A stretch of DNA of 64,000 nt from Marsupella aquatica (taxonomy: Eukaryota; Plantae; Marchantiophyta). Below the pieces are notes generated by a model, which had not been told where the DNA came from, searched no databases, and saw only the letters and a program-made list of their open reading frames with translations. Made by a program: the position numbers and the translations under genes. This document shows, piece by piece, positions 41,144 to 64,000 of the stretch (its first letter is position 1; each line of letters opens with the position of its first letter). The stretch lies in the NCBI GenBank assembly GCA_973895155.1, contig OZ316895.1:10714184-10778183 (forward strand), in the 5' to 3' direction.

Positions 41144-41564
41144 TGTTGGGTATTTACTCTTACGTCTAGGTTAGGTATGACGTGGTTGGTACAACAACGT
41201 GGGTTGGTACAACTACGTGGTTAGGTACAACTACGTGATTAGGTATAACTATGTGGTTAGGTACAACTACGTGATTAGGTACAACTATGTGGTTAGGTAC
41301 AACTAAGTTGCACACTATATCATAAGAGGCATGTGTGCTTGGAGAGGTAGAACCAAGGCTCATTGTTATGGAGCCACTTGAGAGATAGGGAGAGCTTACA
41401 CTGTGGAGACTCGGTATAGCTGACGGGCTTAGAGTTCAGTAAAGTTCTCTTGTGTGTTCCCGTGGACGTAGCCTCAAGGAGGTGAACCACGTATCTCTTG
41501 TGTCGACTATTGTGCGTTGGATGGTTCATGGGCTTGCCGTTATGATCGTCGTCTATGCTCAACA
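41144..41564 (+). repeat. 5' LTR of the copia element, with an 18-bp tandem array
   Basis: Direct repeat of 47220-47640 with about 5 substitutions counted by eye, all transitions. Confidence 0.97.
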
Positions 41565-42715
41565 ATTGGTATCAGAGCATGCTTGGGAGGTGACGTGTGT
41601 TCGTGACGGGATTTCATTACGGTTTTTCCAGCGTTGAGTGTCGGTGGATTTCCCGGAGTTCCGTCGCATGGAACTTGGAGTTTATGGGCTCAACGGATAG
41701 ATCGGGGCAAGAGCTTTCTAACGGTGTGAAGAAATCGCTGAACGGAGCTCGTGGTGCAGAGAGATCTAAGTTTTCGTCGTTCTGGATTTTGTGAAGAAAG
41801 TTGGCAATCGACTCGGAGGGAGAAGCGTCAAGTGTTTTGACTCAACGGAGAGATTGAGGCAAGACGATTGTTTTGAGTCCGGGATTGGCTCTTTGATGCA
41901 AAGAGGAAGGCTAAGCAAAATCAATTACCTTGTTGGATTGGTGACGGCACCAAGTGCAATTGATCAACATTCGTTGTTGACAAGGTACCATTTTTTCTCT
42001 TTGAAAAACTGATTCGAAATTGGCTATGGCAATTGAGAGAAATCTGTCATCTTTACCAATTTTTTTCTCCCTCGTTCTTTCCTCGTTTTGGGTGCTTCTT
42101 ATATCGATCTTCACCGCCTCGAAGTCTAGTTTCCAAATCTGAAATCAGATCTTGATTTCGTCAAAACCCGAGTGAGATATCTTGCGTTTGGTGTCGAGGG
42201 GTACATTCTGCCGTGTGTATTTTCTGCGCGCGCGACCAGATTTCGACGACGAAGGGTGGTAGGGGGTTTTGGGGGTTCGAGGACACGTGTCAGCCCCTCG
42301 ATTGTTCTTCCAAAATTCCCACAGGGCCTGTACAAGGGTCATAAAATATTCCAAAAAACCAGAGAGCTATTTTTTGACCGTCCGACAAAGATTTCATCCG
42401 TCGAACGGTAACTTTTTTGGTTATTTTTTGGCGAGGTCGTAGCCATTGAAGTTGGCAACGCGGCGCACCAATCACATCGTAATTCCGACAACGGGTTGTA
42501 CTTGGTATTTCGGTTATTCCCTGAGGTGGTCAAAACAGGGGAGTTTCCCAAGGTTTTACCCACCTCGACCGAAATTTGAATAACTTTTCCGTCAAATTTC
42601 GATTTTGATTTTGGTTTACAGTATTGAACTCCTAGCTTTGTGGGCTACGCGGCGGTGTAGAGTTTCGAGTTTTTTGAGAAGTTGTGAAAAACAACAATTT
42701 TTGTGATTTTCTCAT

Positions 42716-43756
42716 ATGAGTGATTCGGAGGAATTTTTCGAAGACGTGGAACTTGAAGCACGAGGATCACCGTGGCGGTTTCAGGGGCAGAGAGAGGAGC
42801 AGGAGGAAGAGCACGTGACACCGATACCATCACCGGTGCGGCGTGTGGTGGAGGAAGCAGTACTACTACCGGAGCTCACGGTAGTGCCAAAGAAGAAGAT
42901 GGGGACTTTCAAGCTTGGGGGACCCAAGTATGAAGTGACAAAGTATGATGGGCGCTCTGACTACTTGCTATGGGAGAAGCAGGTGAAGGGAGTACTCTAT
43001 GCGTCAGGGATGGGCCAACTGCTGAGCCCTCGTGAAGACGATGTTGATGAGAAACAATGGGACCGCATGCAGGAGCAGGGAGTGTGGTGTGTTACACTCT
43101 ATCTCATGCCTCCCATCATCAAGCAGTTGGGTGCACATAAGGATTGCATGTCCTTGTTTGCGGAATTGCAGAGCAAGTATCACCGCAAGGAGTTGTCGAA
43201 CCGGCTCTACACTTCCTACAAACTCATGAGTTTCAGGATGAAGGAATCTGGCACAAAGTTGCAAGACCATGTGGATGCTTTCAACGACATGGTCGTTGAC
43301 TTGGAAAACCTTGGGGAGACTTTGAATGATGAGACGAAGGCTCTGCAGCTTCTTAGTTCATTGCCTCCATCTTACCAGTCCCTATCACGAGTGTTGTTGC
43401 ATCGTGATAGGGATACCATTTCATATAATGACGTGGTAAGTTCTCTGCTTAGTGATGATCTTCAGCAGAAGATGCACATCACATCACAGCCTTCATCATC
43501 TGGTGTTGCCCTCAATGTTAACCGTGGGAGGGGTATGCAGCGACCAACTGGGGACCGTAGAACCCAGTTTAGATCTAAATCCAGATCTAAGTCCAAGGGT
43601 AAATCCCCTCAGAGGAGGCAGGTGACATGTTGGAAGTGCAACCAAGTTGGACACTTCAAGCGAGACTGTAAGGGAAAGGCAGCGGAAACTTCATCGGCAA
43701 ATGTGGCTAGGGCTGATGGAGAAGCTGATTTACTCAATGACGAGTATGTTTTATGA
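42716..43756 (+). CDS. gag: Copia Gag with CCHC zinc knuckle
   Basis: KYDGRSDYLLW, LLSSLPPSY and CWKCNQVGHFKRDC. Ends in TGA, in frame with pol. Confidence 0.93.
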   Translation: MSDSEEFFEDVELEARGSPWRFQGQREEQEEEHVTPIPSPVRRVVEEAVLLPELTVVPKKKMGTFKLGGPKYEVTKYDGRSDYLLWEKQVKGVLYASGMGQLLSPREDDVDEKQWDRMQEQGVWCVTLYLMPPIIKQLGAHKDCMSLFAELQSKYHRKELSNRLYTSYKLMSFRMKESGTKLQDHVDAFNDMVVDLENLGETLNDETKALQLLSSLPPSYQSLSRVLLHRDRDTISYNDVVSSLLSDDLQQKMHITSQPSSSGVALNVNRGRGMQRPTGDRRTQFRSKSRSKSKGKSPQRRQVTCWKCNQVGHFKRDCKGKAAETSSANVARADGEADLLNDEYVL

Positions 43757-46700
43757 AGCCGGGGGTATGCCCTGTGCACGTCATCTAGGAGAGCAGATGA
43801 TGTGTGGATTCTTGATTGTGCTTGCTCTTTTCATATTTGTTACATTCGTGAATTTTTCAGTTCTTACTCTATTTCAAACGGTTCAGTTCTGATGGGAAAT
43901 GATCACTCCTGTCAAATTGAGGGAATTGGGTCTGTGAAGATTCAAATATTTAATGGCGCTGTGCGCACAGTGTCCGGAGTCAGGTATGTACCTGGCATGC
44001 GTAAGAATCTGATTTCACTCGGTGTGTTGGATTCAAATGGTCATCAATGGAGCGTTATTGATGGTGAACTTCAAGTCAGGTCGGGAGAGACAGTGATTTT
44101 GAAGGGGAGTAGACAAAAGAATTTGTATGTGTTACAGGGCAATACTGTATGTGGAGAGGCCAATGTAACCAAGTCTCACGAGGAGATGACTCAACTGTGG
44201 CATTCACGGCTAGGCCACATGAGTGAGAAGGGTTTGGCTATCTTACGGAAGAATGGACTCATTTCTGATTTGCAATCTTGTAAATTAGAGTTTTGTGAGC
44301 ATTGCATTCTTGGAAAGCAGCATCGTCGTGCTTTTGGTGTTGGAACTCATCGTTCCAAAGCGGTTCTTGAGTACATACATAGTGACGTGTGGGGTCCATC
44401 CCCGACTCCCTCACACTCTGGAAAGTTGTACTATGTATCATTTATTGATGATTACTCAAGATTTGTGTGGATTTATTTCATGACGCATAAGTCTGATGTC
44501 TTGTCCATTTTTAAGAAGTGGAAGGCCCAGATGGAGAATCAGACTGGAAACACGATCAAGTGTTTGGATACAAGGGTGAAGAGTCTGAGGTCAGACAACG
44601 GCGGGGAGTACACTTCAATGGAATTTGAAGAGTACTGTTCAGAACAGGGGATAACTCGCCATCTCACCATAGTTTATACTCCGCAGCAGAATGGTGTCGC
44701 TGAGAGGCTCAATCGGACACTGTTGGAGCGGTCACGGAGTATGTTGAGCCAATCAGGTTTACCACAAGAATTTTGGGCAGAAGCTATCAATACCGCAGCT
44801 TATTTGGTAAATCTTTCTCCTTCTAGTGCTATCAATTTCAAAACGCCGTTTGAGATGCGCTATAAGCGGCAAGCAGACTATCATGGCTTGGTAGTTTTTG
44901 GAAGTGATGCATATGCTCTCACACCGAAGCAGAATAGGACCAAGTTGGATCCTACCTCCAAGAAATGTGTTTTTCTTGGGTACCAGAGTGGTGTGAAAGC
45001 CTATAGGCTATGGGATCCTATTGCCTGTAAGCTCGTTGTCAGTAGGGATGTTTCCTTCAATGAATCCAGATTATTGAAGGAGGGGGAGAATACTCAGGTC
45101 TCCCGTACTGACAAAGGAAAATCTCCTATCCCGGATCTTGTTGAGGGGGAGATTGGTTATGAGGTGCATGACCGGAGAGAAGGAGTTGCTCCAATTATGG
45201 AGCTGGTTCCTGTGCCAGAGGAACCATAGGAGTTTGTTGATGCTGGTGAGCAGCAAGTGGATGCTGTTGAGCTTCAAATTGTACCAGCACACGCAGATCA
45301 ACCGAAGTCATCGGCTAGAAGAACATCTGGTCGCACTGTACGTGCTCCACCAAGGTATGGACAGTGGGTTGATTCATCTCAACTGCAAGAAAATGATTTT
45401 GCAACTGATGATGAGGGTGATGCGTTAATTTTGGAAGAAGGGGAACCTTCTTCATTTCATGAGGCAAGTGCTTCAAAGGAGAAGCAGAAGTGGACTGCAG
45501 CAATGCAAACGGAGATGCAGTCACTAAAGGACAACAAAACTTGGGAGCTTGTTAAGCTGCCTAAGGGTCAGCAAGTGGTGGACAGCAAGTGGATTTACAA
45601 GCTGAAGGATAATTCCATAGGAGGTGGATCGAAGGTCTACAAGGCTAGGTTGGTAGCAAAGGGATTCACACAAGAGAAAGGTGTGGATTACAATGAGGTC
45701 TTCTCACCAGTTGCTAAGTACTCTACAATACGACTATTGTGTGTACTTGTTGTAATGTTTGGTCTGCTGCTAGATCAGATGGATGTTGTCACAGCTTTCC
45801 TCTATGGCACATTGGAAGAGGTGATCTTCATGAGACAACCGCTAGGTTTTGTGAAGAGAGGACAGGAGGAATTGGTTTGCAGATTGCTGAAATCCTTGTA
45901 TGGGTTGAAGCAGTCACCAAGACAGTGGAACAAGCGGTTTGACGATTGGATTCGGTCACAAGGTTTTCACAGAAGTGTATTTGACCCTTGTGTGTATTTG
46001 AAATCAGTAAAGAATATTGTATTTGGGTTCATTGTTTTAGTACTTTATGTGGATGATATGCTAATTGCAGCCAAGGATAGGTCTGAGATTGTTAAGCTCA
46101 AGGCACTGCTTAGTGCAGAGTTTAAGATGAAGGACTTAGGGCCAGCTAAGAGGATTTTGGGTATGGAGATCACTAGGGACTTGGAGGCTGGCAAGCTATG
46201 GTTGACGCAGAGCAGTTATGCGAGGAAGGTAATTGCAAGGTTCAACATGGGGAATAGCAAGCCAGTAAGTACCCCGTTGGCTCCACACTTCAAGTTATCA
46301 TCAGCATTCTGTCCTACGGATGACATAGAGAAGGGGTTGATGTCAAAGGTTCCGTATGACAAGGCAGTGGGGAGTCTCATGTATTTGATGACTTGCACTA
46401 GACCTGATCTTGCCATGGCTATGGGCAAGGTAAGCAGGTACATGTCAAATCCAGGGAAGGTACACTGGGAAGCAGTGAAGTGGATTATCAGGTACTTGAA
46501 GGGTACCGTGGATCATGGTCTTTTATTTGATGCGAATGCAAAGAATGCTAAATCATTGATTGGCTATGTTGATTCTGACTATGGACAAGATTTGGACCGA
46601 AGGAGATCAACAACAGGATACGTGTTCATACTTGGCGGTGGATGCATAAGTTGGAGGTCTACTTTGCAGAAGTGTATTGCTCAGTCTACTACAGAAGCGG

Positions 46701-47029
46701 AGTATGTTGCAGCTGCGGAAGCAGCAAAGGAAGCGATTTGGTTGGATAGACTTATCACTGAAATGGGATTGCCACAGGGGAATGTGAAGCTCCATTGTGA
46801 TAGTCAAAGTGCGCTCCACCTTGCTATGAACCAGGTGATGGACAGCAGAGTGAAGCACATTGATGTCAGGTACCATTTTATCAGGCAGGCTGTGTCTGAT
46901 AATTTGTTTGAGCTAGTCAAGATTGATGGTAAACTCAACCCGGCTGACGCATTTACCAAAGTGATTCCTTTGGAAAGTTTCTCTAGACACCGTGACGTAT
47001 TGCAGGTTTTGCAATTGCATCACAAGTAG
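43757..47029 (+). CDS. pol: Copia Pol (protease, integrase, RT, RNase H), interrupted by one in-frame TAG at 45227-45229
   Basis: WILDCACS (protease); WHSRLGH..CEHC, HSDVWGP, LRSDNGGEY and QQNGVAER (integrase); YKARLVAKG, LYGLKQSPR and LYVDDML (RT); YVDSDY and STTEAEY (RNase H). The ORFs starting at 42716, 43802 and 45257 are all in one frame. Confidence 0.93.
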
Positions 47030-47219
47030 AGTTTTCTTAACATTCATTGTAATTACTGATATATGCTCTTCCTCATTCCTATGTATTAAGCTACGGCTTA
47101 GTTCTGGTTTGCTCTAGTTAGAGAGGGAAACCGGTTTGGTTTTTGTCTAGAACTTCCCGCTGAGGGATCATATACATTGGCAGTATTACTCTCCCCTAGA
47201 CCAGAGTCAAGGGGAAGAT

Positions 47220-47640
47220 TGTTGGGTATTTACTCTTACGTCTAGGTTAGGTATGACGTGGTTGGTACAACAACGTGGGTTGGTACAACTACGTGGTTAG
47301 GTACAACTACGTGATTAGGTATAACTATGTGGTTAGGTACAACTACGTGATTAGGTACAACTATGTGGTTAGGTACAACTAAATTGCACACTATATCATA
47401 AGAGGCATGTGTGCTTGGAGAGGTAGAACCAAGGCTCATTGTTATGGAGCCACTTGAGAGATAGGGAGAGCTTACACTGTGGAGACTCGGTATAGCTGAC
47501 GGGCTTAGAGTTCAGTAAAGCTCTCTTGTGTGTTCCCGTGGACGTAGCCTCAAGGAGGTGAACCACGTATCTCTTGTGTCGACTATTGTGCGTTGGATGG
47601 TTCATGAGCTTGCCGTTGCGATCGTCGTCTATGCTCAACA
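47220..47640 (+). repeat. 3' LTR of the copia element
   Basis: TGTTGGG..CTCAACA, followed by the TSD GACTC. Confidence 0.97.
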
Positions 47641-47949: not shown

Positions 47950-48129
47950 TAGTAGGTCAGTATTCAGTGATTGGCGACTTCCTCCGTAAGCATTACAATT
48001 TCCTCATCTCTATCTAAATAGGCTCAATCATGCCAGTTCTTATGGGGTTTAATATACGGTAGTTATCCCTCTCAGACTTGAGGCCACTTTTCACCTCAGG
48101 AACATCTTAGTTTTTGTTTTTGTATTAAT

Positions 48130-49959
48130 TTGGGTCCCACCCAGTTGCAGAACTCGACTACCTTAACACTTAGCTCCGGCGTCGTTGATTCCAACGCCGA
48201 GCTTCCTTATGGTCCAGGCCCGGATAGGCCATCCGGGGAGGACTTAGCATGGGGAGACTTGTGGGCAATGGGACGTGGCGCTGGCGAAGGCAAGGCGCCA
48301 AGTTGGTGTCACACAATTAGGACTTAGACTAGCTGAGAGCTGGTTGGGTCAAAGGGAAAAGGGCCAGGCTCAAGGTCGACCATCGATCGAGACCCCCAGA
48401 CGGACTTTGAGTTCTGAGGGCTTGAGTGAGAGCTCCTCTTGGGCCCAAGGCCAATAGAGTTGATGCCATGGGCAACGGATGCTTGGGGCACGAATTATGG
48501 TCCGATCCAGGTTTGGCCGATCGGGGGCTCCAAGTGGCAATGAGATATGGGGGCCTATGCATGAACATTGGGTCGGCCCGATCACAACGGGCTAAGGCAC
48601 TCCGCTTGCGGACGCCTAATTAGGAAGTTATGGGCGTTGCCAGTTGATGACGCACCCAGACATGCGGGTTGGGGTCCAGGTTGGAGGCCAAAAGTTTGGG
48701 GACCAAAGTTGGTCTGGGGGTGACAGGTCTCCATACGCATTTATGAGAGGAGTGGTGTCTCCCTGGGGGCTAAGGGCGAGCCGAAGTCGTGAGCTACGTG
48801 TAAGAAACTGTCGGCTCCAGACTAGACAGCAATGCGGAAACATAAGAGAAACACTCAATCAGACGTTACACCGACGAGACATCCCGAGTGGAGAACCTCT
48901 TGAAGGTTCCATAGCAAATGAGAGTACATGTGAAGAATGAGGGAGAGAAAGCTCTCCCCTCGGGGGGTTGACTATCAACAATCTTAGGAACAATGTGCGA
49001 TCCAAAATAGGTATTTTTCATGTAAATTAGCTAAATTTTTAAAAAGCGTAGAATACAAAAGAAGGTATTATAAACTTATATTTGTAAAATATTCTCTAAT
49101 ATATACCTTTTATAAAGTAAAATAGGTCATTAGTATTGAAAATAGAGAATATTTTTACAATATTCCCATTATAAAATAGGTGTGTTTATATTAGGCTAGG
49201 ATCGCACATGGTACCCCAAAATATACACTAAATTAACCCCCCGAGGCTCTCCCTCCAACCTATACCCCCAAGGGGGCCAAGACATGTGTGGGCCTAAACT
49301 ACTTAAGCGGATCTTATCCTGATGTAATCCAGGGTTAACTAACCCTAGTAAGGCCAAACTAACTAAGCCGGGAACTCAAGTCAATTCCTAACACCGCAGC
49401 GGTCGCAACATTAAGGGAAAATGTCAAACAGAAACGGCAATACCTTTCCAACGAGAAGTTCGTTGGGGGACTTCTTGGGTGCATTGGAAAGCTCTCAAGG
49501 AGGGCTACATCCTCCTGAGCTCAGATAGGTCTTGGGGTGCCATAAGTTCTTGAGGTTTGCGGGTGTTATCTCGCCCGCTTGCCAAATCCTGCCAAAATAG
49601 CAATCGAGCCACGTTCAGTCTCTCAAGGGAGCTTGCGTTGGGGAGGCAAGGCCAAGTAGGCGTGGAGGTTGAGTTCCAAGGGCACTTTGGCCCCTAGACC
49701 ATCGGTGGGGCGAGAACCGGGAGTTGGTTGCTAAAGTCGGGATCATTCTGGTCTCGGCGTGTAGGGACAAACTTGGGACAAGCTTTAGGACAAGCTACGC
49801 TATTTGGGCCATGAGCATGTCTAGGGAGCAGGGCGATCAGTTGGTGATGGATAGGTATGAGGGGGATTGAACCCGGGCTGCGCCCAAGGAAGGAGCTGTG
49901 CTGGACAAACAGTGGGCATCGGTTCGGGTTCTGGCTTATGGCAACGGGAGGACCTATCA
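48130..49959 (-). mobile_element. Degenerate LTR-retrotransposon-like remnant
   Basis: GC-richer non-coding block. On the minus strand a TGTTAGG start near 49393 and a TGGCGCC PBS-like motif near 48300 bracket an LTR-sized segment. No partner LTR or TSD was seen. Confidence 0.35.
48959..49245. mobile_element. MITE with 8-bp TSD and CTCGGGGGG termini
   Basis: TIRs CTCGGGGGGTT / AACCCCCCGAG, an inner inverted pair TGTGCGATCC / GGATCGCACA, and a perfect TSD GCTCTCCC at 48951-48958 and 49246-49253. Confidence 0.85.
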
Positions 49960-50317
49960 CACTAGAAGAATCCGAGGTGAACTGAGACCGCAATATGTGA
50001 CTCATTTTGGCTCATGTGACTTCATTGTGACTCAACGTGACTTGACCCACGCTGTGACCCTTGGAGTTGCAAAAGTTGATACCAAAAAATGGAAGTCACT
50101 ATTGATACTGGGCTTTGCAACTTGCTTGATACCCATTTGTGACTGATCTGTGACTTTATTGTGGAGTCTAGCCTTGTTTCGACGTGACTGCAATATGACT
50201 TCAGCGAGTCACATCGTAAGTCACATACATGACTTACCCGCATTCAACAACGACTAGCGTGTGACCATTTAGTGTCACAGGAGAGACCAATGGAGACCCT
50301 GGCCCGCGTCACACAAC
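49960..50317 (+). mobile_element. CACTA element terminus A, interrupted by element B
   Basis: Starts CACTAGAAGAATCC and is followed by dense direct and inverted GTGAC/GTCAC subterminal repeats. Confidence 0.72.
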
Positions 50318-50704
50318 CACTAGAAGAAAACAGGGCCCTTTATGACCAATCACCCAATGACAGAGATGAATAAATGACCAAAAGTTTTAATGACACAAAA
50401 AGAATGACAGGGGAATGACTGTCCACAATGACCAATAGACTGAAATGACAAAATGTTAATTTTTTCATCATTTTGTATAATGTCTATAATGACTGATGCG
50501 ACCAAAATGACCCAATTTCCCTAAATGGTCAATTTAGACACATGTCTTAAATGACACAATTAATAACAAAAATGATAAATCAGTGTTTAGCAACATTATA
50601 GTCACTCTTGACAATGACTGAAATGACTAAAAATCTATTTGGATCATTTTGGACAACGGTGATAAATGACAAAAAATGTATTATCGTCATTTTAACCAAC
50701 GGTG

Positions 50705-51225
50705 TTAAATGACAAAATTTAGGGTCAATCTGAAAATGAGAATATATCAGTGTTTACAACAACATATTGTCATTATGGACTTCTGCCATAAATGACTAAC
50801 TCTAAGGTCAATCTTGAAATTAGGACATATCAGTGTTTACAAGAACATACCGTCATTATGGACTTCTCTCATAAATGACTAACTCTAGGGTCAATCTTGA
50901 AATTAGGACATATCAGTGTTTACAAGAACATACCGTCATTATGGACTTCTCTCATAAATGACTAACTCTAGGGTCAATCTTGAAATTAGGACATATCAGT
51001 GTTTACAAGAACATACCGTCATTATGGACTTCTCTCATAAATGACTAACTCCACACTCAATTTTGAAATTAGGATATATCGGTGTTTTCAACAACATACT
51101 GTCATTATGGACTTGTCACATAAATGACTAAATATAGGGTCAATCTAAAAATCAGGATATATCAATGTTTACAATAACATACAGCCATTATGGACTTATT
51201 GCATAAATGACTACTTATAGAGTCA
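50705..51225. repeat. 83-bp tandem repeat, about 6 copies, in the CACTA subterminal region
   Basis: CATATCAGTGTTTACAAGAACATACCGTCATTATGG recurs at 50826, 50909 and 50992, with diverged copies on both sides. Confidence 0.92.
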
Positions 51226-51299
51226 TTAAAGAACCCAAGAGATATGAAGATTAAAATACTCAATAGTCATTCCAGACACCTATCATAATTGTAGAGTCA

Positions 51300-53150
51300 T
51301 ACACCTTTGGAGTGATTTTCCAGAAGTGTCATCATATATAGATGCGCGCATACTATCGTATCCATGGGGCAAATGAAACTTTTTTGTCTCTCCAAGAAGT
51401 AGGGCAATACCAATGGAAGGTTGTAATCCTTTGTTGTAATTGTGTCATGTTTGTGCCGGTGTTTGGACGGGGAATATTTTAATTTGCAAATAAATGCATG
51501 CATACCATCACATCCAAAGGCAAATAAAAGTTTTTTTTGGTTCTCCAAGAGGTAGTGCTGCCCCAATGGAATGGGCAGGGGAGTCATGCTTCTCAGTATG
51601 GTGTGGGTGCAGGTTTAGGGAAGAGGAATATTCCAATCTTGCAAGGAATCTAAAGCTGGCTCTCTTTGGAGGTACTAGGGCCTTTATTGGGTCATATGTG
51701 AGCAATGGCCCGTCATAAATGCCAATGACTAAAAGTAGGGTCATTAAAATTGTCATATGGAGAGTCATATCAGTCTAATGACTGGATTTGTGGTCATTTG
51801 AGGGGTCCCTTATGTAGTCATTAAAGAAAAGCACAAATGACCATTTTGGGGCTAGGGGCTTGAGGTGGGCCCTAGAGTGCCATGGGGCCCCACATAGAGG
51901 TGACAACCCCTCCACTAGGTGTGGGACACTATACTCATCATTGTCCAACCACTAGTTGCGACATAAACACTTTGGACACATGTTTTTGTGTTTACTCAAG
52001 GCATGATGCACCTTTGGGGAAATCACTCCCAAGTCGTACGACTTTGGAGTGATTTGCCAAAAGTGTCACCATGGATGCATACCATCACATCCAAAGGCAA
52101 ATAAAAGTTATTTTTGGGTTCTCCAAGAGGTAGTGCTGCCCCAATGGAATGGGCAGGGGAGTCGTGCTTCTCTGTATGGTGTGGGTGCAGGTTTAGGGAA
52201 GAGAAATATTCCAACCTTGCAAGGAATCTAAAGCGGGCTCTCTTTGGAGGTACTAGGGCCTTCATTGGGTCATATGTGACCAATGGACCGTCATAAATGC
52301 CAATGACTACAAGTAGGGTCATTACAACTGTCATATGGGCAGTCATATAAGTCTAATGACTACAGTTGTGGTCATTTGAGGGGTCCCTTGTGTAGTCATT
52401 AAGCAAAAGCACAAATGACCAGTTTGGGGCTAGGGGCTGGAGGTGGGCCCTAGAGTGCCATGGGGCCCCACATAGAGGTGAGAACCCCTCCACTAGGTGC
52501 GGGACACTATACTCATCATTGTCCAACCACTAGTTGCGACATAAACACTTTGGACACATGTTTTTGTGTTTACTTAAGGCATGATGCACCTTTGGGGAAA
52601 TCACTCCCAAGTCATACGACTTTGGAGTGATTTGCCAAAAGTGTTACCATGCATGCACACCATCACATCCAAAAGGCAAATAAAAGTTGTTTTGTGGTTC
52701 TCCAAGAGGTGGTGCTGCACGAATGGAATGGGCAGGGGAGTCGTGCTTCCCTGTATGGTGTGGGTGCGGGTTTAGGGAAGAGGAATATTCCAACCTTGCA
52801 AGGAATCTATTGGGGGCTCTCTTTGGAGGTACTAGGGCCTTCATTGGGTCATATGTGACCAACGGACCGTCATAAATGCCAGTGACTACAAGTAGGGTCA
52901 TTACAACTATCATATGGGCAGTCATATAAGTCTAATGACTACAGTTGTGGTCATTTGTGTGATCCCTTGTGCAGTCATTAAGGAAAAGCACAAATGACCA
53001 GTTTGGGGCTAGGGGCTGAATGTAAGAATGAGTGCCACGCGGTCCCACATAGAGCTCACCACCGTTCCACGAGGTGGGGGATACAATACTTTCTATTCCA
53101 CCACTAGTTGCAGCATAATAAATGTTCAGACATGTTTTTGCGTTTAGGGA
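51300..53150. repeat. About 578-bp tandem repeat, about 3 copies
   Basis: Homologous spurious ORFs begin at 51768, 52346 and 52925 (spacing 578 and 579). Copies 2 and 3 look most alike. Confidence 0.92.
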
Positions 53151-54479
53151 AGGCATTATGGAGCACTAGAAGAGGAGCATAATTTCATTGGGTCATTTTG
53201 GATTAAGGGTATTCATTAATGCCAATGACTGAAGTGAGGGTCATTGGCACCGTCATTTTGCATGTCATATAATTCAAATGTTGTGTCATAAAAACCAATT
53301 TTGACTACAAATAGTGTCATTGAAATGGTCATATTAAGTGTCATATAAGACAAATTATTGGACATTTGGTCATTTAAGTGGTCCCTTGTGCAGTCATTGG
53401 GGTTGTCATGAATTAAAAAATGACATAGTATATCACATATTATCACATCTGAATGTGTAATTCCTTGGACCCAAATTTTTGGGGGCCCCATAAGTGCTAA
53501 TCAAAATAGTACATATATGGTATACCATATCATTCAATACTATAATAAACTTCACTATTTTCCTTAAATAAGAGAGTTCACACAAATTATTAACACGTTT
53601 TAATCGATGTGTGATTATTGCCAGGCCGATTTTAGAGTAGGGGTAATAGTTGATCGTGACATGAACAAAATGGTGCGTCTTTGGCAATGACAAAAAATTG
53701 AGATCTAATGACTGCAACTAGTGGTTGTTTTAGACCGAAGTCATACCGAAGTAGGGGTTCTCTTTTTAATTATCAGGACCTTATATAATGTCATTGTGGT
53801 ATGATATGGGAGGACTCCTATAAGAAATCACCAGAAATGACCTTATTTGGCCCGGGGCTGCCTATGGGTGGGAGGTGGGCTTCCCTTGAGTTAAAGTTTA
53901 GATGGGGGTGTAGAGTCATTTAGGGTTTAGGGTATTGTGGCCTTATGGGGGTCAGGACATTTTTAGGAGTTTTAGGGTAAGTGAATTACCCTATCGTGTG
54001 TGTCGTTTAAGCCCATCCAACGGTAAACATGACCGGGTTTAGGGGGCGACATTGTTTCCAGCACAAGTGTTCACCATTCGCGCGAGGGCCCTTTTTCCCG
54101 AAAACCATCGATCTGCTACGTTGAATGTCGTGGTTTCTTGGTGTGCACATATCAGTTTCCGAGCGGAGTGCTCTCACCTTTAGGGTTGCACAAAGTTTAA
54201 GTGCTCTTGGGACTTTATCACTGCGCTGCGTAACGTCGGGCAAGCATTGGGCGAGGCATTGTTTGAGTGAAGCCTTGGACCTGGACCCTAAACTATTGAC
54301 CATTTGCATGCTTTAGAGGAGGAGCTCCGACCCGAAGCCATTCAGGCTGCCATTGTTTTTGAGTGTGTTGCGCACGTTCAGCGGAGCACCTCGGTAGGAC
54401 TTGGGCGCTACATGTTTCCAGGAGCTTTGATTGATTGGCATTGCAATAGCTTCTTTACATTTCCTCCAAGTTGCGGGTG

Positions 54480-54793
54480 AGGAGCGGAGGACGTGCTGCA
54501 AGCGGAGGACGAGCGGAGAGCGGAGGACGAGCTCGGGCTGCCAGCGGAGGACGAGCGGAGAGCGGAGGACGAGCTCGGGCTGCCAGCGGAGGACGAGCGG
54601 AGGGCTGAGCTGCGAGCAGAGGACGAGTTGCAAGCCGAGGACGAGCGGAGAGCGAAGGACAAGCTCGGGCTGCAAGCGGAGGACGAGCGGAGGCTGAGCT
54701 GCGAGCGGAGGACGAGCGGAGGCTGAGCTGCGAGCGGAGGACGAGCTCGGGCTGAGCTGCGAGCAGAGGACGAGCTGCGAGCGGAGGACGAGT
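54480..54793. repeat. GC-rich minisatellite (GCGGAGGACGA-based), probable CACTA 5' control region
   Basis: About 15 copies of GCGGAGGACGAG interleaved with GCTGAGCTGC and CTCGGGCTG spacers. Confidence 0.88.
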
Positions 54794-57148
54794 TCCCCTC
54801 CATCTCCATTCGTAGAGTGAGCTTCTTGTCTTTTGGGGACTTTAATTGGGAGTCAAGCTTCTCATTTCCCACGAAGAGATTTGTTCTACTGCATGCTAAT
54901 GCCACCGCGTTTCATTCTGTGACACTGAATTTTCTCTTCTAGAGCCTCTAGAGCGTCCACATCTAGAGACAGATTTCTTTTGTTGAACACCAATAAAAAT
55001 CCAGTTCCATTCTACTCACAATAATCTAGGGCTGTTGGGAGGAATGCAGAGTGAGTTCTATTGCTGATTTGTAGTCTATTTCTGGGCACTATGCTTGGTC
55101 TGTCAATTGCCAACTGTGCTTGTCTGTTATAGTTTGCGGAATTTGATTTGAATGGTGAAAAGCACACTCTCTGGATGAAAGTGCCGGCTAAGCGTAGACT
55201 GAGCGTTTCATATACGTTTGATTGATATTCCATTTTGATTGCACAATTCATTTGTTGCGGATCCCTACGAGTGCATTTTCTGTTTGTTATTCTCTGCCCC
55301 TCAGCACCAAGATCGTTTCCTCAGATCTCAATTCAGCCGTTCGTTGGTGTGAAACATGACTACTGTTGCTCCTCTCGGTTTCATCCATGCCTGAACGTAG
55401 CAATCGGCAGCCATGAAGGTGGGGCCATCACCATTTTCACAATCCATCCAACTAGTAATGTTCGCTCAATGGCAACCTTAAGTTGTGGCAATTGTGGTAC
55501 TGTGGACTTTACTGACAAACACATCGGAGAATTTTTGGACACCCTAAAGTGCACTTCCTCTTCTACTTAAAAATTCAAGCCCTAAGATAATTTCCTTATC
55601 TTTGACAAAATAAGAATGGTGATATTGATGTGCGAGCGGAGTAACTATGTGCTCTGTTGTGGGGTAAGTTCATTCATACCAAGGGGCCAGCTAGCGCACT
55701 GCCAACAACATACAATCCATGCATGGGGAGTGCCAAGCCAATCTAGAGCATTAATTTGAGCATTGTTTTGCTCTGTATGAGCGACCAGGCCGTCTAGCAA
55801 GTACTTTGCTTCATAACAATTGTAAAAGATTCTCAACAGACATTGGCTCTATCCATGCATGAGGAAAAAGGCAATGTAGAGCATTAATTTGAGGATTTGT
55901 TTTCCTCTGAATGAGTGAGCTGCGATCGAACAATGTAAGTACTAGTAAGTACTAGACTACTTGCTAACCCTTGCTGGAAAATCTGTGTCAAACATCTGTT
56001 CCCACAATCCAAATCTGCGTATGTTGGATCTCTGTTGCGCTCTACTTTCTTTCACAGATTTTTTTGTTTCTTCCATTTCCTTTCTTGCATCTGAAGTCCG
56101 AGGACCATACTAGTTATCAATGTGCCAAAGACTTCTCATTTCTTCACTTTTCGTCTCCCTGCCGTTGGCACTTTCAGCAACTTTTTTTTTACTGAAGAGA
56201 AGTGCAGGCATGTATGGTGAATCCTCACTGGATTCCAGCAGCGACTCTGTAGAATTCTGTCGCCAAAAAGTTTCAGAGTTTCGTGTGTGGTTTGCCAACT
56301 GCTGTGCCACCTCAGAGAATTCCTCAATGGCTTTTGTACAAGCCTTGCTCTTCAACTATGGTAATTTACAACTAACTGTCTGACGTTCACACATGATTTC
56401 CTTTGGTCTGCAAACTGGACAAAACTAAACTAAAATCAGCTTGGTCAATTTTAAATTCTTCGTAAGGGTCTCTGACAGCAGCCCGGTAATGCCACGACTG
56501 CACGAAGATAGAGTACGGTGCAGCTTTTGAAAAAGTGGGTGGACCAGCAGCTTGTTGAGAGTAAAGCAACTTATGGTTCTGTAACGCATGTGTGCAGCAG
56601 CTTAAGATGTAGAAGGCACGCAATAAAACTTGATTTTTATAGATTTAAAAAAGGGCAAGGTGATTGAGCACTGCATAATGAACTTACTGGTCTGAATCTT
56701 GATTTGATTTCACTGCTAAAATTTGTATCTCTTGCCTGAGTCCCAGTTCGCTGGAGTTTTGTTGCTCTCTGTGCTTTGTTGTGCACATTGTTGTGTTTGC
56801 TCTGTCCATTTTAAAACTTGAGAGCCAAATGAATGCTTTGCTGAAACTCAATTGCTATTTGTTCTGTGTTGCCCTTATAGATTTTAAAAAGGCAGGGTGA
56901 GTGAGCACTGCTGTACAGGAAGCGAAGGCATACAGGTTGCAATATTTGTGATTGCTTCCAATCATAGGCCAAGGTTATTTGCACTGCTCAGTCCTAAATG
57001 CTTTGCCATCCATAAAGCATTGGTTTGTGCTGCACCCTTGTGGTTACATGTCATATTTTATGCTGCACCCTCATTCTTGTGTGTCATGCTGCACCCTATT
57101 ATTCCTTCTTGTTTCACAATCTGATGTAGGGTCTGAGTGTGCAGGACC

Positions 57149-57808
57149 ATGGCTCGCAATAAGCAGAAGGCCATGAATCGTTGCAGAGGTGAATCCTCTC
57201 AAGCACCTCAATTGTCCTTATACTCAGACATTGAGATTAACCAGAATAGTCCACATGTATGTGCGATTTGTGATGAGGGAGGGGATCTCATTGTTTGTGA
57301 TGGGCCTTGCCACCGACATTTCCATAAGAATGTTTCCTGTCCTTTGGGTCAGCAATGGCTATGTCCAACTATATCCCTGGCTGATGGCCATGTTGGAGAA
57401 TGGCTTTGTGTTGATTGCAAGAATGAGGAACATTCTTGCTTTAAGTGCCATGTGTCTGGAAAAATGGGTGAAGAGGTAAGAAAATGTCCAGACCCTCTCT
57501 GTGCCCGGTTTTACTGTCAGCAGTGTTTGGTTCCTGGCACAGCATCATGTGGACTCCATATTTGTCTTACTTGTGGACAGGGGCCCAATGATGGGGCTAA
57601 TGGCTTTTTGGTTCAGTGCATGAGGTGTCCTAAGGCATGGCACAAGGACTGCCTGCTATTTATCCAGCAGAGGGGATTTGCCCATGATCGAACAATTTGG
57701 GATCACTCAGCGCATGGGCAGCCCAAGAAGGGGATGTTTTACTGTCCTGACCATGACATTGACCCTACACTAGGCACTCCTGCTAGGAGTCACATATCTT
57801 GGATTTGA
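57149..57808 (+). CDS. Stand-alone EDM2/NSD-like composite PHD-finger protein (219 aa) inside the CACTA element
   Basis: ATG in accATGg context just after an acceptor (TGATGTAG at ~57129). Motifs: CAICDEGGDLIVCDGPCHRHFH, WLCVDCKNEEHSCFKC, EVRKCPDPLCARFYCQQC, CGLHICLTC, QCMRCPKAWHKDCL and YCPDHDIDPTLGTPARSHI. The last mirrors the YCxxHEID..LxTPxRDH tail I recall from EDM2. Confidence 0.85.
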   Translation: MARNKQKAMNRCRGESSQAPQLSLYSDIEINQNSPHVCAICDEGGDLIVCDGPCHRHFHKNVSCPLGQQWLCPTISLADGHVGEWLCVDCKNEEHSCFKCHVSGKMGEEVRKCPDPLCARFYCQQCLVPGTASCGLHICLTCGQGPNDGANGFLVQCMRCPKAWHKDCLLFIQQRGFAHDRTIWDHSAHGQPKKGMFYCPDHDIDPTLGTPARSHISWI

Positions 57809-58408
57809 TTGAGGCTGGATGGAACACAAACTTGAGATAGAGTTTTTTGATGGTTTCACGTGGACTTCAACAATTTTCAGAGTGCTAAAACATGTGGACT
57901 ATTTATATGCAGTTTGATGAACTCCTCATGTATACACACTCTACGACAGTGCATTGCGGATTGAGGCAATTAATTTTGAGAAATCAACTTTACTATCTTT
58001 TCCAGGGTAGGATTCCGATTTTCATGCATGTGCTTTGAGTGTGACTCGGGTCATTGTTGATGTCTAAACTTCACTTGTAAATTTGTCACTGGTGTCACAA
58101 ACATTACTTATTCCAGACCTGTCTGCTCACATTCCTAATAGGCAAACAAATACTGGAAATGATGAAGGCATAGAGATTTACGTTCATAGTATCATTCTGA
58201 TGACACTGTATGTGATGCTCTATTTGTATGCAAGAAGGAGAAGGTGCCCCACTACAATGGATTTGAGAAACTGGGCTCTGTGGGTTTGAGCAATTGGACT
58301 GTGGTTGGCATCGGTTGTACAACTGTGACGGTAGGCCCAATTTTGTATGCATGTCACACCGATTCAGTTTGAAAATCATAGTTTGAATACAATTTCAATC
58401 AAGCTAGC

Positions 58409-61400
58409 ATGGCACAATTGCCACATAATACGTTAGGTGTGGGTAGAACTCCAAAGTTGCCTCTCTTCCATCCAGCTAGAGTACAACATCGTGATGATGC
58501 TTTGTGGGTTCGAGAACAGAAGGCCTGCCACAAGAGTGGGGACCATAAGATGTACTGCCCTTGTGTGAACTGCAAAGGGAATTATAGGACTAATCGGAAT
58601 ACTGCTAGACTACACCTTATTAAACATGGTCGGTACCCTGCATGTCGAGTGTGGGTGGGAGAGGGACAGGACTCTTCTGATGAAGAGTGGGGTGCTGACT
58701 ACATGTCACAACATGGCCCTGAGGCATTGAGGGTAGCAAACCTTCAGCAGGCATCCTGTGCACAACAGCCAACTGTAGATGTTGAAGAACATTTATTTGT
58801 AGATGTTCCAGAGTATCCAACTGTGGATGTTCAAGAACATCCTACTATAGATGTCGAAGAACATATCAGGGCTCTACTAGAAGAAACGTTGCTGAGAACC
58901 AATGAAGAATCCCCTGAGCATGAACTAGATGATCAGGACCATTTTGACTTGGATTTTATACTTGGGGATGATGAGAGTGAAGGAGGTGCCCATCCTGTAA
59001 ACCCCCTTGAAACCTCTGAAACTCCTATGGAGACTGATCCTGCACAGTTATCTTTAGATGCAGCAATGCAACCTTTGTTCCCAGGCAGCAAAATAGATGT
59101 TGTGTCATTCATGTTGCTTCTGCTGAACATCTGTCACGGCCATGGATTCTCAAACAAAGGAGTGAATGCATTGTTGTCTTTGATGGGGGAGCATGGTATG
59201 CCTGCAGAGCATAATCTGCCCAAGAACTTATATGCTGCAAAGCAGCTATTGAGAAAGCTTGGCTTGGATTATGAGAGAATCCCTGTCTGTGAGAAAGGTT
59301 GCATGCTCTTTAGGGGTGAGAATGCCAAGTTAGAAAACTGTTCAGTGTGTCAGCAGCCCAAGATGAAGAGAGTGGGGAATTCATTACAGGCAAGGAAGGT
59401 GGTGCGGTATTTCCCTATAATTCCCAGGTTGAAGAGATTGTATGCCACTGCTGGTACATCTAAACTCATGACTTGGCATCATGAGAATAGAAGCACAGAC
59501 AACATGGTTCGGCACGCAGCAGATTCAAAGGCTTGGAAGCATGTGGATACAAATATTGATCGGAAATTTGCAGCTGAACCAAGGAATGTGCGATTTGGGT
59601 TGGCACTTGATGGGGTGAATCCCTTTGGGAATAATTCCACAGCTTGGTCTACCTGGCCAATACTGTTGTTGAATTACAATTTACCTCCTTGGCTTACCAC
59701 CAAGAAGTTCTTTGTCATGCTAGCTATGCTGATTCCAGGACCTGATTCAGTAACAGAGGAACAACTGGACATAATATTGGGCCCATTCTATGAGGAGCTG
59801 GAGCTGTTGTGGAAGAAAGGAGTGCCCTGCTTTGACAAATTGCCACGCCCAGGATTGTCTCAACACTTCAACCTTAGGGCTGTGCTATTGTGGACAATCA
59901 ATGATTACCCTGCATATGGTTTAATATCTGGACAACAACACTCTGGATACAAAGGATGTGTCATCTGTGGGCCAAAATGTGTGGCACGTGGTTCTAAGCA
60001 CTTGCAGAAATTAGAGTACAGTGGCCACCGTCGATGGTTAGCAGCAAGGCATCTTTTTCGTAGACCAGACAGTGCACAATACTTTGATGGTGCAATTGAG
60101 AGTCAACCTACACCGTGTAGAATGACAAGCTCTGATAGAAAGAAGTGGGGAGACGAGACAACAGAATATTTGAAGAAGGGAGGAACCAAGGTTGAGGATG
60201 AGAAATGCCCCATAAAGGTGCATGGAGTGAAGAGGGCTACTGGTCTGTACAAGTTACCCTATTGGAATGTAAGACTCCATACTACTACAATGAATTTCTG
60301 CAATCTCTTCATATGACTTTGAAATATATTCTCTTCATATACTTCCTGAACCCCAGATTTTGTAATTGTTGTATTCAATGCAGTAATTTCTGAATTGTGT
60401 CCACTGCACAAACTACTGCCCAGTGATGCCAAAAGTTGTATTCAATGCCCTAATTTCTGAATTGTGTGTCCACTGTAGAAACTACTCATTAACCATTGTC
60501 TAGATCCCATGCACTGTGAGAAGAATCTTGCACACAACATTGTGCACACTATCATTGGGACCAAGGACACTCCTTCTGTGAGAGAAGACATGAAGCTCTT
60601 ACAGGTGCGCCAACACCTATGGCTTGTACCCAATCCAGCTCCCAAGCGTAAGGATGACAAATTGTTGATGCCCCCAGCCCCATATTGCCTGAGCAAGAAG
60701 GAAAGAACAAGGTTCTTGGAGGTTTTATTGACCTTGAAAGGGCCCACTGGTTTTTCAAGTTCTTTGGCAAAGTGTGTTACAAAATCCAAGAAACTCTCTG
60801 GGTTGAAATCACATGATTTCCACCAACTCATGCAACAGATTCTCCCTCTGGCAACAATGGGATTACTTGATGAAGGGGTTCGCTTGGCCATAGCTGGGGT
60901 GAGCAATATCTATCGCCAGATCTGTACGAAGGTGTGGGACCCTTCAATGTATGAGAATTTGATGATGGATGTTGCATTCACTCTCTGCATTTTGGAAATC
61001 CATTTTCCACCAAGCTTCTTTGATGTCATGACCCATTTAATGATTCACCTAGTGGAGGAATTAGACTTGTGTGGCCCAGTTACAGGCAGATGGATGTACC
61101 CAATAGAGAGGAACCTGAAGGTATTGAAGGGTTATGTACGAAACAAGGCACGTCGAGAAGCTTCTATGGCTGAAGGCTATGTATTAGATGAGTCTTTGGG
61201 ATTCCTTTCTGAATACATGATTGATGCAAAGGGAGAGGGAAAACGAACCTGGGAGTTGGAGGAGGATGCTGGCGTTGCAGGCATTGTTTTGGAAGGGGCT
61301 GCAAAGGCGATAACTTTGGATTGGTCTGAAATGATGGCCATGCATCATTATATATTGGAGAATGAAGAGACAGTGGCTCCATGGTACAGGTACATAAACC

Positions 61401-62346
61401 CTAAATTATGTTGCCCCATTGTGTTTGTATATTCATGGTGGATCATGCACTAATGTCTTCAGTGTTGTTGTTGCCATGCAGGATATATGATGCTACCAAT
61501 GAGACTGTTACCAAACGAAGAGTGGATTTCCGGAATGAATGGATGAGGAAGCCTGCCAATCGAAGAAAACCAGTGGAATTTCCCGCTGATTGCCAAGAAT
61601 TGTCACCTTTTAGGGAATGGTTTCAAACATTAGTCAATACCCATAATTTTGAAAAAGAGTCTGAGCGGTCATTACTATCTGCATACTCCACACCACCTAG
61701 TTTGAAGGCACGACTGTATAGGGCATGCAGAGCCTATGGGCACCATTGGAGGACTATTCCATCCTTGGGGTGTTTGAGTGATTGTGATTCTGGTGCTTTC
61801 AACACTTTTGATTCTGGGATGGCTTCTACATTCACTGAGAAGCGAGTGGACAGGTCTGGTGCAACCATAGAAGAATTTGTACAGTATGTAGGGGCCTTGA
61901 CAGATATCTTAGTACTGAATTACGGCAGCTTGAGGAAAGAGGTGATTCTTTTCAAAGGGAAATGGGCAGATCCATCATGGACTCCTAAATCCTCTGCCAG
62001 TATGAGGTATTCCGAGTCTGGTCTTTGGCAGGTGAATTTCCATAGAGAACTGGGTGTGTCCAAGAAAATGGATTACGTTTTCCCAAAGCAAGTGGAGCAG
62101 GTTTTCTTCCACCCCAATGAGAAGGGGATAGCATGGAGAACAATCCTCCACAAAGAATCCAGGTCCACAAGGGTGTTAGGTGATTACACAGACGTTGATT
62201 TCCATGCTACAATGGAAAACAATGCCAAATTACACATCAAATTGGCTAAGGCCTGTAGGTCCAGAGAAAATCCAGGACCAAGTACTGGTCCCAAACGAGG
62301 CAGAGATGCAGAGGGATCTGCAAGAAAGGGCAGGCCTAAGCAGTGA
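58409..62346 (+). CDS. CACTA transposase (TnpD/Tnp2), join(58409..60268,60479..61389,61482..62346), 1211 aa
   Basis: CPCVNC transposase-associated motif; VRYFPIIPRLKRLY, RHAADSKAWKH, LALDGVNPF and WTINDYPAYG (Transposase_21); DPMHCEKN, GLKSHDFH, FFDVMTHLMIHL and RWMYPIER (DUF4218); YVGALTDILVLNY and YVFPKQVEQVFF (DUF4216). Two GT-AG introns keep the frame, and the spliced product has no stops. Confidence 0.93.
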
Positions 62347-62775
62347 ATAGGTTTTAGCTAGGTGTGTGAAGTCCATAGATGGACTACATGTATGGACTAT
62401 TTATGAAATCAGACTAATGGTTTACCCATTTGTGCAGTTGGTGAATGCAGCCTGTGAAAGGAAGATTGCAAGGGTTGTCACATTCTGTGAATCCTTATGA
62501 GGAGGCCTGAAATCGGAACATAGAGCATAATGTCAGAATTATGCGTGATCTAGGACTGGGGCCAGACTGCAAGCTGATGTGTGTGTTGATATGTCTATTG
62601 CAAATTTGATTCAGTAGATGGAGTTGTCAGGTTCATGTTCTGTTTTCATATTCCAGATTGGTCTCATACTAGTATGGATCCTGTACATAAGTACTAGTCT
62701 TACGGTGTTGTAGATTCATTTTGCATGTATGTTTGATCTGCATTGGTGTATGTTGATGATTGCTTTGTTCCTTAG

Positions 62776-63177
62776 AGGCCCAACCACACATGTACAACGA
62801 GAGAGAGGAAAGCCTGCTTTGGTGAAAGGTACTTCAACTGAAACATTGCCAAAGAGGAGGAGCTCTAGACTATCAGAAGTTACCAAGGTGAACATGGCAG
62901 AGTTTGGTGATGATGGATATGGTTCTCCTTCTGAGTATGACACTGAGGATTCTGACATTGGAGGGTCAGAACCAGAGAGTGCACAACAGGTAATGCTTGA
63001 ACTTCATCATCCTAATAGGAAGGGATCCTTGTCCCTTTTTCAAATTATATGTTGATATGCTTACGTTGTCCATGATGTAGGTACAGAAACAAAATCGTGG
63101 TCCTAAGAAGACTGGGCCTGGTGGAGGTGGGCTAGTGAGATGTTGGAAAGACCCAGACACTGGACTCTTATATGAAA
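62776..63177 (+). CDS. Putative short spliced exons of unknown function downstream of the transposase
   Basis: AG/GT-bounded segments ~62776-62989 and 63081-63177 join in frame: PKRRSSRLSE..DDGYGSPSEYDTEDSD..QQ|VQKQNRGPKKTGPGGGGLVRCWKDPDTGLLYE. Confidence 0.35.
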
Positions 63178-63244
63178 GTGAGTGGATTGTACTGTTCTAC
63201 TTTTCAGGTGTGTTTGGAAGTTGATATTCTACTTGGAAATGAAA

Positions 63245-63991
63245 TTAATTGAAGTGCTTTGGTGTTGTGTGTTTGTTTAGTGGTTCCATCAGCATCTGAA
63301 GGCAGATCAGGTCAATCTGATGTACTACATTCCAGAGGATCTTCAGGTAATACACAATCATGCTCGTCATGACAGCTTTAGGTTTCACTAGTAATGTGAC
63401 TAACACTACTGAATAACCTGGGGGAATCCTCTTGCCATGGAACGTTGTGGAACCAACCTGCACTCTGCCAAATCCTACTCGTGTTCCACTCTCATCAACA
63501 GCTAACAAGCCACTTTGTCCCTCAGCATTAGGTGCTTTCCCCACTTCCACCTTAGATCTTTCTGCCAGCACCGTTCTTGGAGGTTTGTATGAAACCTTTG
63601 ACGTGGCTTTGCTCCCACCAGCAGACTTGCTTTGTGTGCGCATGCTTCCTCTCTTCACAGTAGTGAAGCTAGGCTCAGTAGGTTCCTCTGTTAGGACTGT
63701 CACAGTAGCAGGTTCATCACTTGGGAGTGTCATACCAACTAACTCTTTGGTTGGATTTATCTCAACAAGAGGCACACCTGTCATTGAGAATGATACATTC
63801 TGCAAATCATTTATCTCTGCAATGGAGTCAAGATCTACATAGCATGAATCTGGCTCAATGGTATCATTGTCATGCTTGCTGATATCCTCATTTGCCCCAA
63901 CATTGATATCATCCACTCCCTTGCCAATGTCATCCTCATCCAAACATGGTTGACTGCCCTCTGTCAAACAAGTTGCTTGTACAGACTGCAA
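63245..63991 (-). CDS. 3' part of a convergent CACTA accessory gene with a Tnp1/En-Spm-like (TnpA-family) motif
   Basis: Open for more than 740 bp. An acidic/low-complexity stretch is followed by RVGFGRVQVGSTTFHGKRIPPGYSVVLV, resembling the VAxGxV..HGxxIPxGYxxVxV motif of CACTA second-ORF proteins. The 5' end is outside the window. Confidence 0.55.
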   Translation of the reverse strand: MQSVQATCLTEGSQPCLDEDDIGKGVDDINVGANEDISKHDNDTIEPDSCYVDLDSIAEINDLQNVSFSMTGVPLVEINPTKELVGMTLPSDEPATVTVLTEEPTEPSFTTVKRGSMRTQSKSAGGSKATSKVSYKPPRTVLAERSKVEVGKAPNAEGQSGLLAVDESGTRVGFGRVQVGSTTFHGKRIPPGYSVVLVTLLVKPKAVMTSMIVYYLKILWNVVHQIDLICLQMLMEPLNKHTTPKHFN

Positions 63992-64000
63992 CTTTGTTGC

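Follow-up and report, generated by a model that had tools for sequence, protein, structure and literature searches.

A stand-alone EDM2-type PHD gene with a histone H3-like N-terminus in a CACTA transposon of the liverwort Marsupella aquatica

Introduction

Why would a DNA transposon carry, directly ahead of its transposase, a gene for a small protein built almost entirely of PHD fingers? The question is raised by a 64,000-nucleotide (nt) stretch of the Marsupella aquatica genome (contig OZ316895.1 of assembly GCA_973895155.1, forward-strand positions 10,714,184 to 10,778,183; hereafter the window, numbered from its first letter), in which a 219-residue open reading frame (ORF) related to the chromatin reader EDM2 lies in a CACTA element upstream of a TnpD transposase. 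Capture of chromatin regulators by transposons is already known from VANC, TnpA and RAG2, the first two being plant counter-silencers that act through DNA motifs. A first-pass annotation of the window had suggested that the element co-opted the reader module of EDM2; the analysis presented here follows up that suggestion and adds a histone H3-like N-terminus, which the annotation had missed.

Results

A single-exon gene for an EDM2-type PHD module

The reading frame extends uninterrupted on the + strand from an ATG at 57149 to a TGA at 57808 and encodes 219 residues, including 22 Cys and 14 His, with PHD fingers occupying residues 36-219. It aligns end to end with relatives of the same length without any intron-sized gap and, because an acceptor-like TGCAG ending at 57144 (AG 57143-57144) stands 4 nt 5' of the ATG, the gene (57149..57808) is probably one coding exon behind a spliced leader. 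A donor-like site within the frame, at ~57475, does not qualify as the beginning of an intron, since the alignment with relatives runs across it. Pfam detects only PHD families in the protein, and no DNA-binding domain: PHD_NSD (E 2.8e-8) and PHDvar_NSD (E 2.3e-7) score above cut-offs, PHD and PHD-1st_NSD below them. ORF, alignment and Pfam thus bear out the first-pass description of an uninterrupted 219-residue frame of tandem Cys/His fingers.

In the Protein Data Bank (PDB), the best sequence match is NSD3 (E 1.8e-10, residues 36-167), with NSD2 also among the best and no EDM2 chain among the matches. An AlphaFold model computed from 17 sequences has a mean predicted local distance difference test score (pLDDT) of 76.9, with residues 1-18 below 50, and retrieves as its best, weak fold matches the PHD5-C5HCH tandems of NSD proteins (E 5.6e-4); the top match of an Atlas search (0.91), a Streptophyta PHD_NSD cluster, is a lead only. 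The profile searches proposed in the first-pass annotation therefore returned the expected kind of domain, whereas the closest structures belong to NSD rather than EDM2. The likeness to the PHD cluster of NSD1-3 is confined to these sequence and fold matches: the window protein has neither SET nor PWWP, and the NSD match stops before a C-terminal half finger of EDM2 type. This motif, C..H...TP..H, occurs in 8 of 11 short rows (the window protein and its stand-alone relatives, see below), 5 of 6 bryophyte paralogue rows and 12 of 13 EDM2 rows, and in 0 of 9 outgroup rows; three further intended outgroup rows (P0027, P0134, P0151), whose matched region was not extracted, were left out of this count and of the 36-row tree described below. 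Motif and tree together argue for EDM2 rather than NSD as the origin of the module and bear out the earlier assignment to the composite EDM2 type.

EDM2, its bryophyte paralogues and the window protein, which nests in their family tree, share this 2.5-PHD build with its C-terminal half finger. Only the PHD part of three EDM2s could be matched (32-36% identity over about 190-235 columns), and the N-terminal domain and methyltransferase-like C-terminal region of EDM2 are not in the ORF, which, judged by these comparisons, is not an EDM2 orthologue; the suggestion that the reader module was taken without the other domains therefore holds. Further differences from EDM2 are a single exon, the location inside a transposon, a leader with R-x-K-x-x-A and a shortened finger 2 with Cys in place of His: the short family has FYC where EDM2 has FYH, has lost a helical insert, and carries His in place of the acidic run before finger 1. 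Finger 1 is also devoid of the Trp that belongs to the H3K4me3 cages of PHD fingers.

The PHD gene lies within a CACTA element

The element opens on the + strand at 50318..50345 (CACTAG...). Contigs of two runs, three from X1 and seven from X2, follow the window to 50317 and continue in other letters, as at an empty site, and one X2 contig begins to match at 50318 after 162 nt of another flank. The CACTA end is a real insertion edge, as the first-pass annotation had assumed in placing ORF and transposase within the region that it opens; the AAC 5' of it is the presumed 3-bp target duplication, and no second terminus was found between 50318 and the PHD gene. Directly inside the edge lies a subterminal repeat region (50318..53900) with 83-nt and 578-nt tandem units and 57 copies of AATGAC/GTCATT (15.9 per kb, against 0.3-0.8 per kb in five other stretches). 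It is followed at 54477..54795 (+) by a GC- and CpG-rich repeat block (70% GC, 40 CpG) with donor-like sites behind it, a candidate untranslated first exon or control region for which maize Spm serves as the model.

TnpD begins with an ATG at 58409, 600 nt behind the PHD stop and on the same strand, as previously noted. It had been called intact: its 1211 residues are indeed free of internal stops, but they are encoded by three spliced exons rather than one ORF, namely exon 1 (58409..60268; Transpos_assoc and Transposase_21), exon 2 (60479..61389; DUF4218) and exon 3 with the stop (61482..62346; weak DUF4216), all + and separated by GT-AG introns of 210 and 92 nt. Transposase_21 (PF02992, E 1.6e-65) and DUF4218 (E 6e-35) score above Pfam cut-offs, Transpos_assoc and DUF4216 below; the motifs LDG, INDYP and YPIER contain D401, D499 and E830, which we take to be the catalytic residues. 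A Calypogeia fissa protein aligns at 57% identity over 973 columns that span the first splice junction. Acceptor-like sites stand before the ATGs of both PHD gene and TnpD. The 3' end of TnpD intron 1 carries a 67-nt duplication (60368-60467), with no AG in the first copy. About 40 nt of the spacer between the two genes (~58208-58248) are retained by a diverged contig from organism D (joint 58248-58466), which also matches the transposase start; they may represent a small exon or control motif.

Insertion edge, Tnp2/TnpD with DDE motifs and subterminal repeats identify the element as CACTA. Downstream of TnpD, short exon-like frames (62714..63345, +) may be where a TnpA-like gene begins; Pfam finds nothing in 62714-63052. 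The recognisable part of the copy ends at ~63370, where a loose end and a rise in contig depth mark the junction to a fragment of more deeply covered sequence (63371..64000, -). The open frame of this fragment has no Pfam match and presumably resembles the TnpA C-terminal domain; broken at 63371, it is either an inversion of the element's own gene or a second CACTA. No 3' terminal inverted repeat (TIR) was found within the window, which ends at 64000, the best match of the reversed 20-nt end having 6 mismatches; a TAGTG at 53719 was discarded as 3' end, as its agreement with the terminus is limited to a few bases and AAC does not follow. Because of the missing 3' TIR and the apparent break at ~63370, the copy is not called complete or autonomous.

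The window stretch, or part of it, is contained in 7 of 11 listed runs, under four organism labels, and the contigs of these seven were compared with it. Contig depth, which does not equal copy number, is alike for PHD gene and transposase (701 vs 685-940 in X1, 233-245 vs 298 in X5, 26 vs 19-40 in X6), an agreement that extends over three organism labels. The segment 53112-55918 has a depth ~8-9 times lower than both genes in X1 and X6; most copies may therefore carry a different upstream region, which points to subfamilies that have exchanged their promoter or leader. The same runs hold further, diverged PHD sequences on contigs of lower depth and 83-88% identity; loose ends at 57732/57777 (X1, X4, X7) were read by eye as C-termini of other members; these contigs suggest that each organism has several PHD families. 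The observed/expected CpG ratio of the PHD ORF (0.19) is close to that of the TnpD exons (0.22-0.28), with 0.71-0.73 in two host genes of the window; we read this transposase-like CpG loss as a sign of long residence in the element.

A conserved family of short PHD proteins

Searches and cluster look-ups gathered 32 short stand-alone proteins, including that of the window. Twenty are near full length and 12 broken or cut short, as expected for mobile DNA, though some of these may be contig-end cuts. The 5 best of 383 matches in the 50% library are all short (166-245 residues), and a profile search returned 15 short proteins among 429 candidates. At a median pairwise identity of 43% (30-90%), 17 aligned members conserve 21 Cys columns at 95%, compared with 43% for 188 other columns, and 17 of their 28 invariant columns are Cys or His. 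The closest named relatives of both TnpD and the PHD protein come from Calypogeia, Riccia and Marchantia, and the nearest named host proteins are only ~36-43% identical to the PHD ORF. Distant host relatives and ligands conserved across families thus stand where a neutral capture would have a near host donor and a decaying frame; rather than a single recent neutral capture absent from sister copies, the possibility that the first-pass annotation had named against itself, the ORF belongs to a conserved family, of which 32 members were gathered. Taken together, the comparisons make it likely that the PHD gene is a conserved, functional accessory gene of the element.

In a tree of 36 rows rooted on 5 distant ones, which replaces a quick first tree without outgroup, the 11 short rows form one clade (100/100). 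Its sister is a clade of 6 bryophyte EDM2-like paralogue rows (94/92, just under the starred level), including Marchantia Mp1g03210 and Mp4g03050, Riccia R1sor_003797 and Calypogeia CAM6087769; three named long paralogues match the EDM2 N-terminal region weakly and end after the PHDs. The likely donor is therefore this paralogue clade (Mp1g03210 type) and not EDM2 itself, so that of the EDM2 origin proposed earlier the family stands and the immediate source does not, with the qualifications set by support just below the starred level and by the long stem of the short clade (1.53), because of which the sister relation may be an artefact.

The PHD-only build was likewise confirmed, but it is not unique to transposons: outside the short clade, it is found in Marchantia Mp4g03050 (280 residues) and in wheat/Aegilops proteins of 250-340 residues. 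Because these annotated genes share the build, what is new is not the build but its transposon setting. Mp4g03050 (P0018) forms a long branch in the paralogue clade and has an internal PRPKMKA resembling the transposon leaders.

Searches of metagenome, viral and prokaryote contigs for PHD relatives found none; a single 15-residue match in a search with P0079 (L001, E 2e-4) was dismissed as chance. None of the 202 proteins from the PHD searches matches TnpD, in searches not aimed at longer proteins, and pairing of PHD and transposase by eye, among the best 120 of 444 transposase matches, gave no partner for contigs of 4180, 5691 and 13432 nt.

A histone H3-like N-terminus

Ahead of its fingers, at 57149..57178 (+), the window protein starts M-A-R-N-K-Q-K-A, within the stretch (residues 1-18) modelled at low confidence. 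Histone H3 starts ARTKQTARK (PMC12266144); the window leader reads ARNKQKA, and that of P0001 ARTKQKAYK. Leaders were compared in 24 of the 32 members, leaving out five near-duplicates and three without leader, against shuffles of either the whole leader or only its most basic 15 residues (overall means 0.6-2.3, maxima 5-8). Eighteen of the 24 leaders contain [AST]-R-x-K, where shuffles average 1.6 and 2.3 and never exceed 8 in 2000 runs, and 13 contain R-x-K-x-x-A (maximum 7 in 2000), whereas the first 45 residues contain [AST]RxK in 0 of 120 listed transposase starts and 4 of 135 other PHD matches. A published definition of H3 mimics, iM-Z-R-X-K, fits 48 among the roughly 21,000 proteins of humans; peptides of this type are bound by PHD readers and can serve as methylation substrates in vitro (PMC8166343). 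The MARNK of the window protein conforms to it, as do these mimics (H3TMs, PMC8166343); the difference is that here mimic and reader are united in one small transposon protein.

Several observations weigh against this interpretation of the leader. No more than 7 of the 24 leaders have the strict start M-Z-R-x-K; another 11 carry the motif 1-19 residues further in (some of these being gene-caller starts) and 6 do not have it, so that a free Ala1, needed by PHD pockets, is not universal. The [AST]RxK pattern was chosen after seeing the data, the leaders are related to one another and, as the motif is basic, a nuclear localisation signal could explain it. Moreover, 14 of the 135 other PHD matches, many of them bryophyte-type EDM2s, start M-[AST]-R, and algal-type EDM2s start M-A-R. 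Three short proteins of the seed-plant EDM2 clade (P0049, P0101, P0112) have MARxK at their start, before the PHD module, possibly an independent origin of the same combination. A complex prediction for residues 2-31 of P0001 and the PHD module scored 0.03 (mark 0.34), in a run made without an alignment and with peptides outside its calibration.

Other features of the window

The sequence hosting the CACTA insertion (48000-50317) is a very deeply covered, GTGAC-rich repeat; a loose end behind 48794 in X1 holds another CACTA-like word, perhaps a second insertion site. Further upstream lies a Ty1/Copia element (41144-47519, +) with near-identical long terminal repeats at ~41144-41443 and 47220-47519 and a gag-pol frame interrupted by stop codons at 43756 and 45229; the insertion is young. 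Host genes include an intronless GRAS factor with a Gln-rich N-terminus (31716-34511, -; Pfam E 2e-121) and a set of exons at 5988-8417 (+) without Pfam match, whose product presumably resembles a GMI1/SMCHD1-type protein.

Discussion

Three known systems frame the finding. VANC of VANDAL/MuDR and TnpA of Spm/CACTA are, like the PHD gene, accessory genes beside a transposase that apparently stem from captured chromatin regulators, with MAIN-like proteins as the apparent partial origin of VANC and NDX as that of the TnpA C-terminus (PMC13547354); they differ in binding DNA motifs, whereas the window protein has no DNA-binding domain and is predicted to read histones. RAG2, with RAG1/ProtoRAG, provides the precedent of a PHD-bearing gene adjoining a DDE transposase. 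Its PHD is of H3K4me3 type, while the window module is of EDM2/NSD type and sits in a plant CACTA; RAG2 is further set apart by its kelch core.

A literature search, which lay outside supplements, Repbase, Dfam and subscription papers, found no CACTA-borne PHD or EDM2-like gene, and within the same scope agrees with the earlier statement that no CACTA family with an EDM2-type reader was known. "PHD" is absent from the main text, as far as available, of a 962-structure Spm survey (10.64898/2026.08.24.746577), an atlas of Arabidopsis transposon products (PMC13547354), a gene-capture review (PMC13317346) and a survey of fungal DNA transposons (PMC5751038), and in the accessible parts of PMC13621724 and PMC13361950 it occurs only in the reference lists.

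The interpretation that we favour, tentatively, is that of an old captured EDM2-family reader with an H3-like start, kept as a chromatin adaptor that helps the element in silenced chromatin. In Arabidopsis, the EDM2 PHDs bind H3K9me2 and other marks (PMC7472560), and together with ASI1 and AIPP1 the protein promotes the use of distal polyadenylation sites on transcripts that traverse heterochromatin (PMC7472560, PMC7529245, PMC3632883); in Marchantia, many transposons carry H3K27me3 (10.1101/827881). The liverwort module would bind H3 tails as EDM2 does, H3K9me2 reading being an extrapolation from the Arabidopsis protein; since the Trp typical of H3K4me3 cages is missing from finger 1, the ligand is more likely to be a silent-type tail with unmethylated K4. 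The A-R-x-K-x-x-A end could function like an H3K4 peptide in one of two ways: by blocking the finger of the same protein until a nucleosome takes its place, or by engaging host H3K4 readers and writers. As no DNA-binding domain is present in the protein, it would have to be directed to its own element by TnpA or TnpD bound to the AATGAC repeats. PHD protein and TnpD may be alternative products of one promoter; if, as the acceptor-like sites suggest, they share a leader exon, the TnpD mRNA must read past the end of the PHD gene, which is the kind of transcript-end choice that EDM2 controls. In methylated chromatin, the element would then be expressed, or transcription would read through to give the complete transposase mRNA. 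This anti-silencing mechanism in particular should be regarded as possible, no firmer than the general interpretation. Its most far-reaching form, in which a deep bryophyte CACTA lineage encodes mimic and reader in one protein, which is controlled through methylation of its own K4 and recruits host activating or RNA-processing machinery onto silenced elements, would amount to a plant DNA transposon countering its silencing at the level of histones; this form appears doubtful.

Apart from the points raised above about leader and tree, other considerations count against the adaptor. Among the contigs listed, none spans both PHD and transposase coding sequence, so that their linkage rests on the window and on tiled contigs of like depth, and the CACTA link of members below ~80% nucleotide identity is an extension from the window lineage, as no flanking DNA was obtained for them. 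Histone binding by the module is a prediction from its sequence, and we know of no interaction of the PHD protein with TnpA or TnpD.

Other functions would account for part of the same evidence. A reader that tethers the transpososome to target chromatin would agree with the position of the PHD gene beside the transposase at like contig depth and with the insertion of the copy into another deeply covered repeat (48000-50317). Chromodomains play such a part in chromoviruses, tethering them to target chromatin. The corresponding precedent among PHD proteins is RAG2, which localises to H3K4me3 via its PHD (PMC5175335) and would guide RAG1 in the same way; we nevertheless consider an insertion guide unlikely, as only one insertion site is at hand, no transposase-binding region is evident in the PHD protein, and the H3-like end would be superfluous. 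An untethered decoy, competing with EDM2-family readers for H3 tails and soaking up H3K4 readers and writers so that silencing is loosened genome-wide, fits a protein that is a reader only, with neither catalytic nor DNA-binding domain, and whose start conforms to that of mimic peptides able to bind PHD readers (PMC8166343). A benefit of this kind, however, would go to unrelated elements as well and is a poor explanation for why deep families retain the gene in cis, and the known plant anti-silencers are sequence-specific (PMC5735166); we regard such a decoy as improbable.

The rival that touches the family rather than its function is that distant members are host genes or parts of other mobile DNA, only the window lineage residing in a CACTA element, and that the leader motif is a nuclear localisation signal. 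The distant members do come without DNA context, host PHD-only EDM2-like genes exist, and the motif, which is basic, frequently lies some way into the protein; yet none of 14 short members looked up by cluster carries an annotated-gene accession, although EDM2-family genes of Marchantia, Riccia and Calypogeia were retrieved, and the members are intronless, lie on short contigs, are often broken, and coexist as several families in one run, which leaves this explanation a low probability. A neutral Pack-CACTA passenger, finally, would be in line with the capture of host sequence by CACTA elements (PMC13317346) and with the finding that 2 of 5 listed ORF differences between the window copy and all covering contigs change a residue. 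It is very improbable in view of full-length frames with conserved start region and stop position, Cys residues 95% conserved at 43% identity, and the lack of a close host donor at about 36-43% for the best named matches.

For structure and binding work, the 219-residue ORF offers a natural minimal EDM2 module, and the PHD gene is a candidate chromatin-targeting part for CACTA-based tools. If the chromatin-adaptor interpretation is true, the conflict between transposons and their hosts would extend to the histone code and to the EDM2 pathway, by which transcript ends in heterochromatin are governed, and this in plants whose transposons are packaged in chromatin unlike that of transposons in flowering plants.

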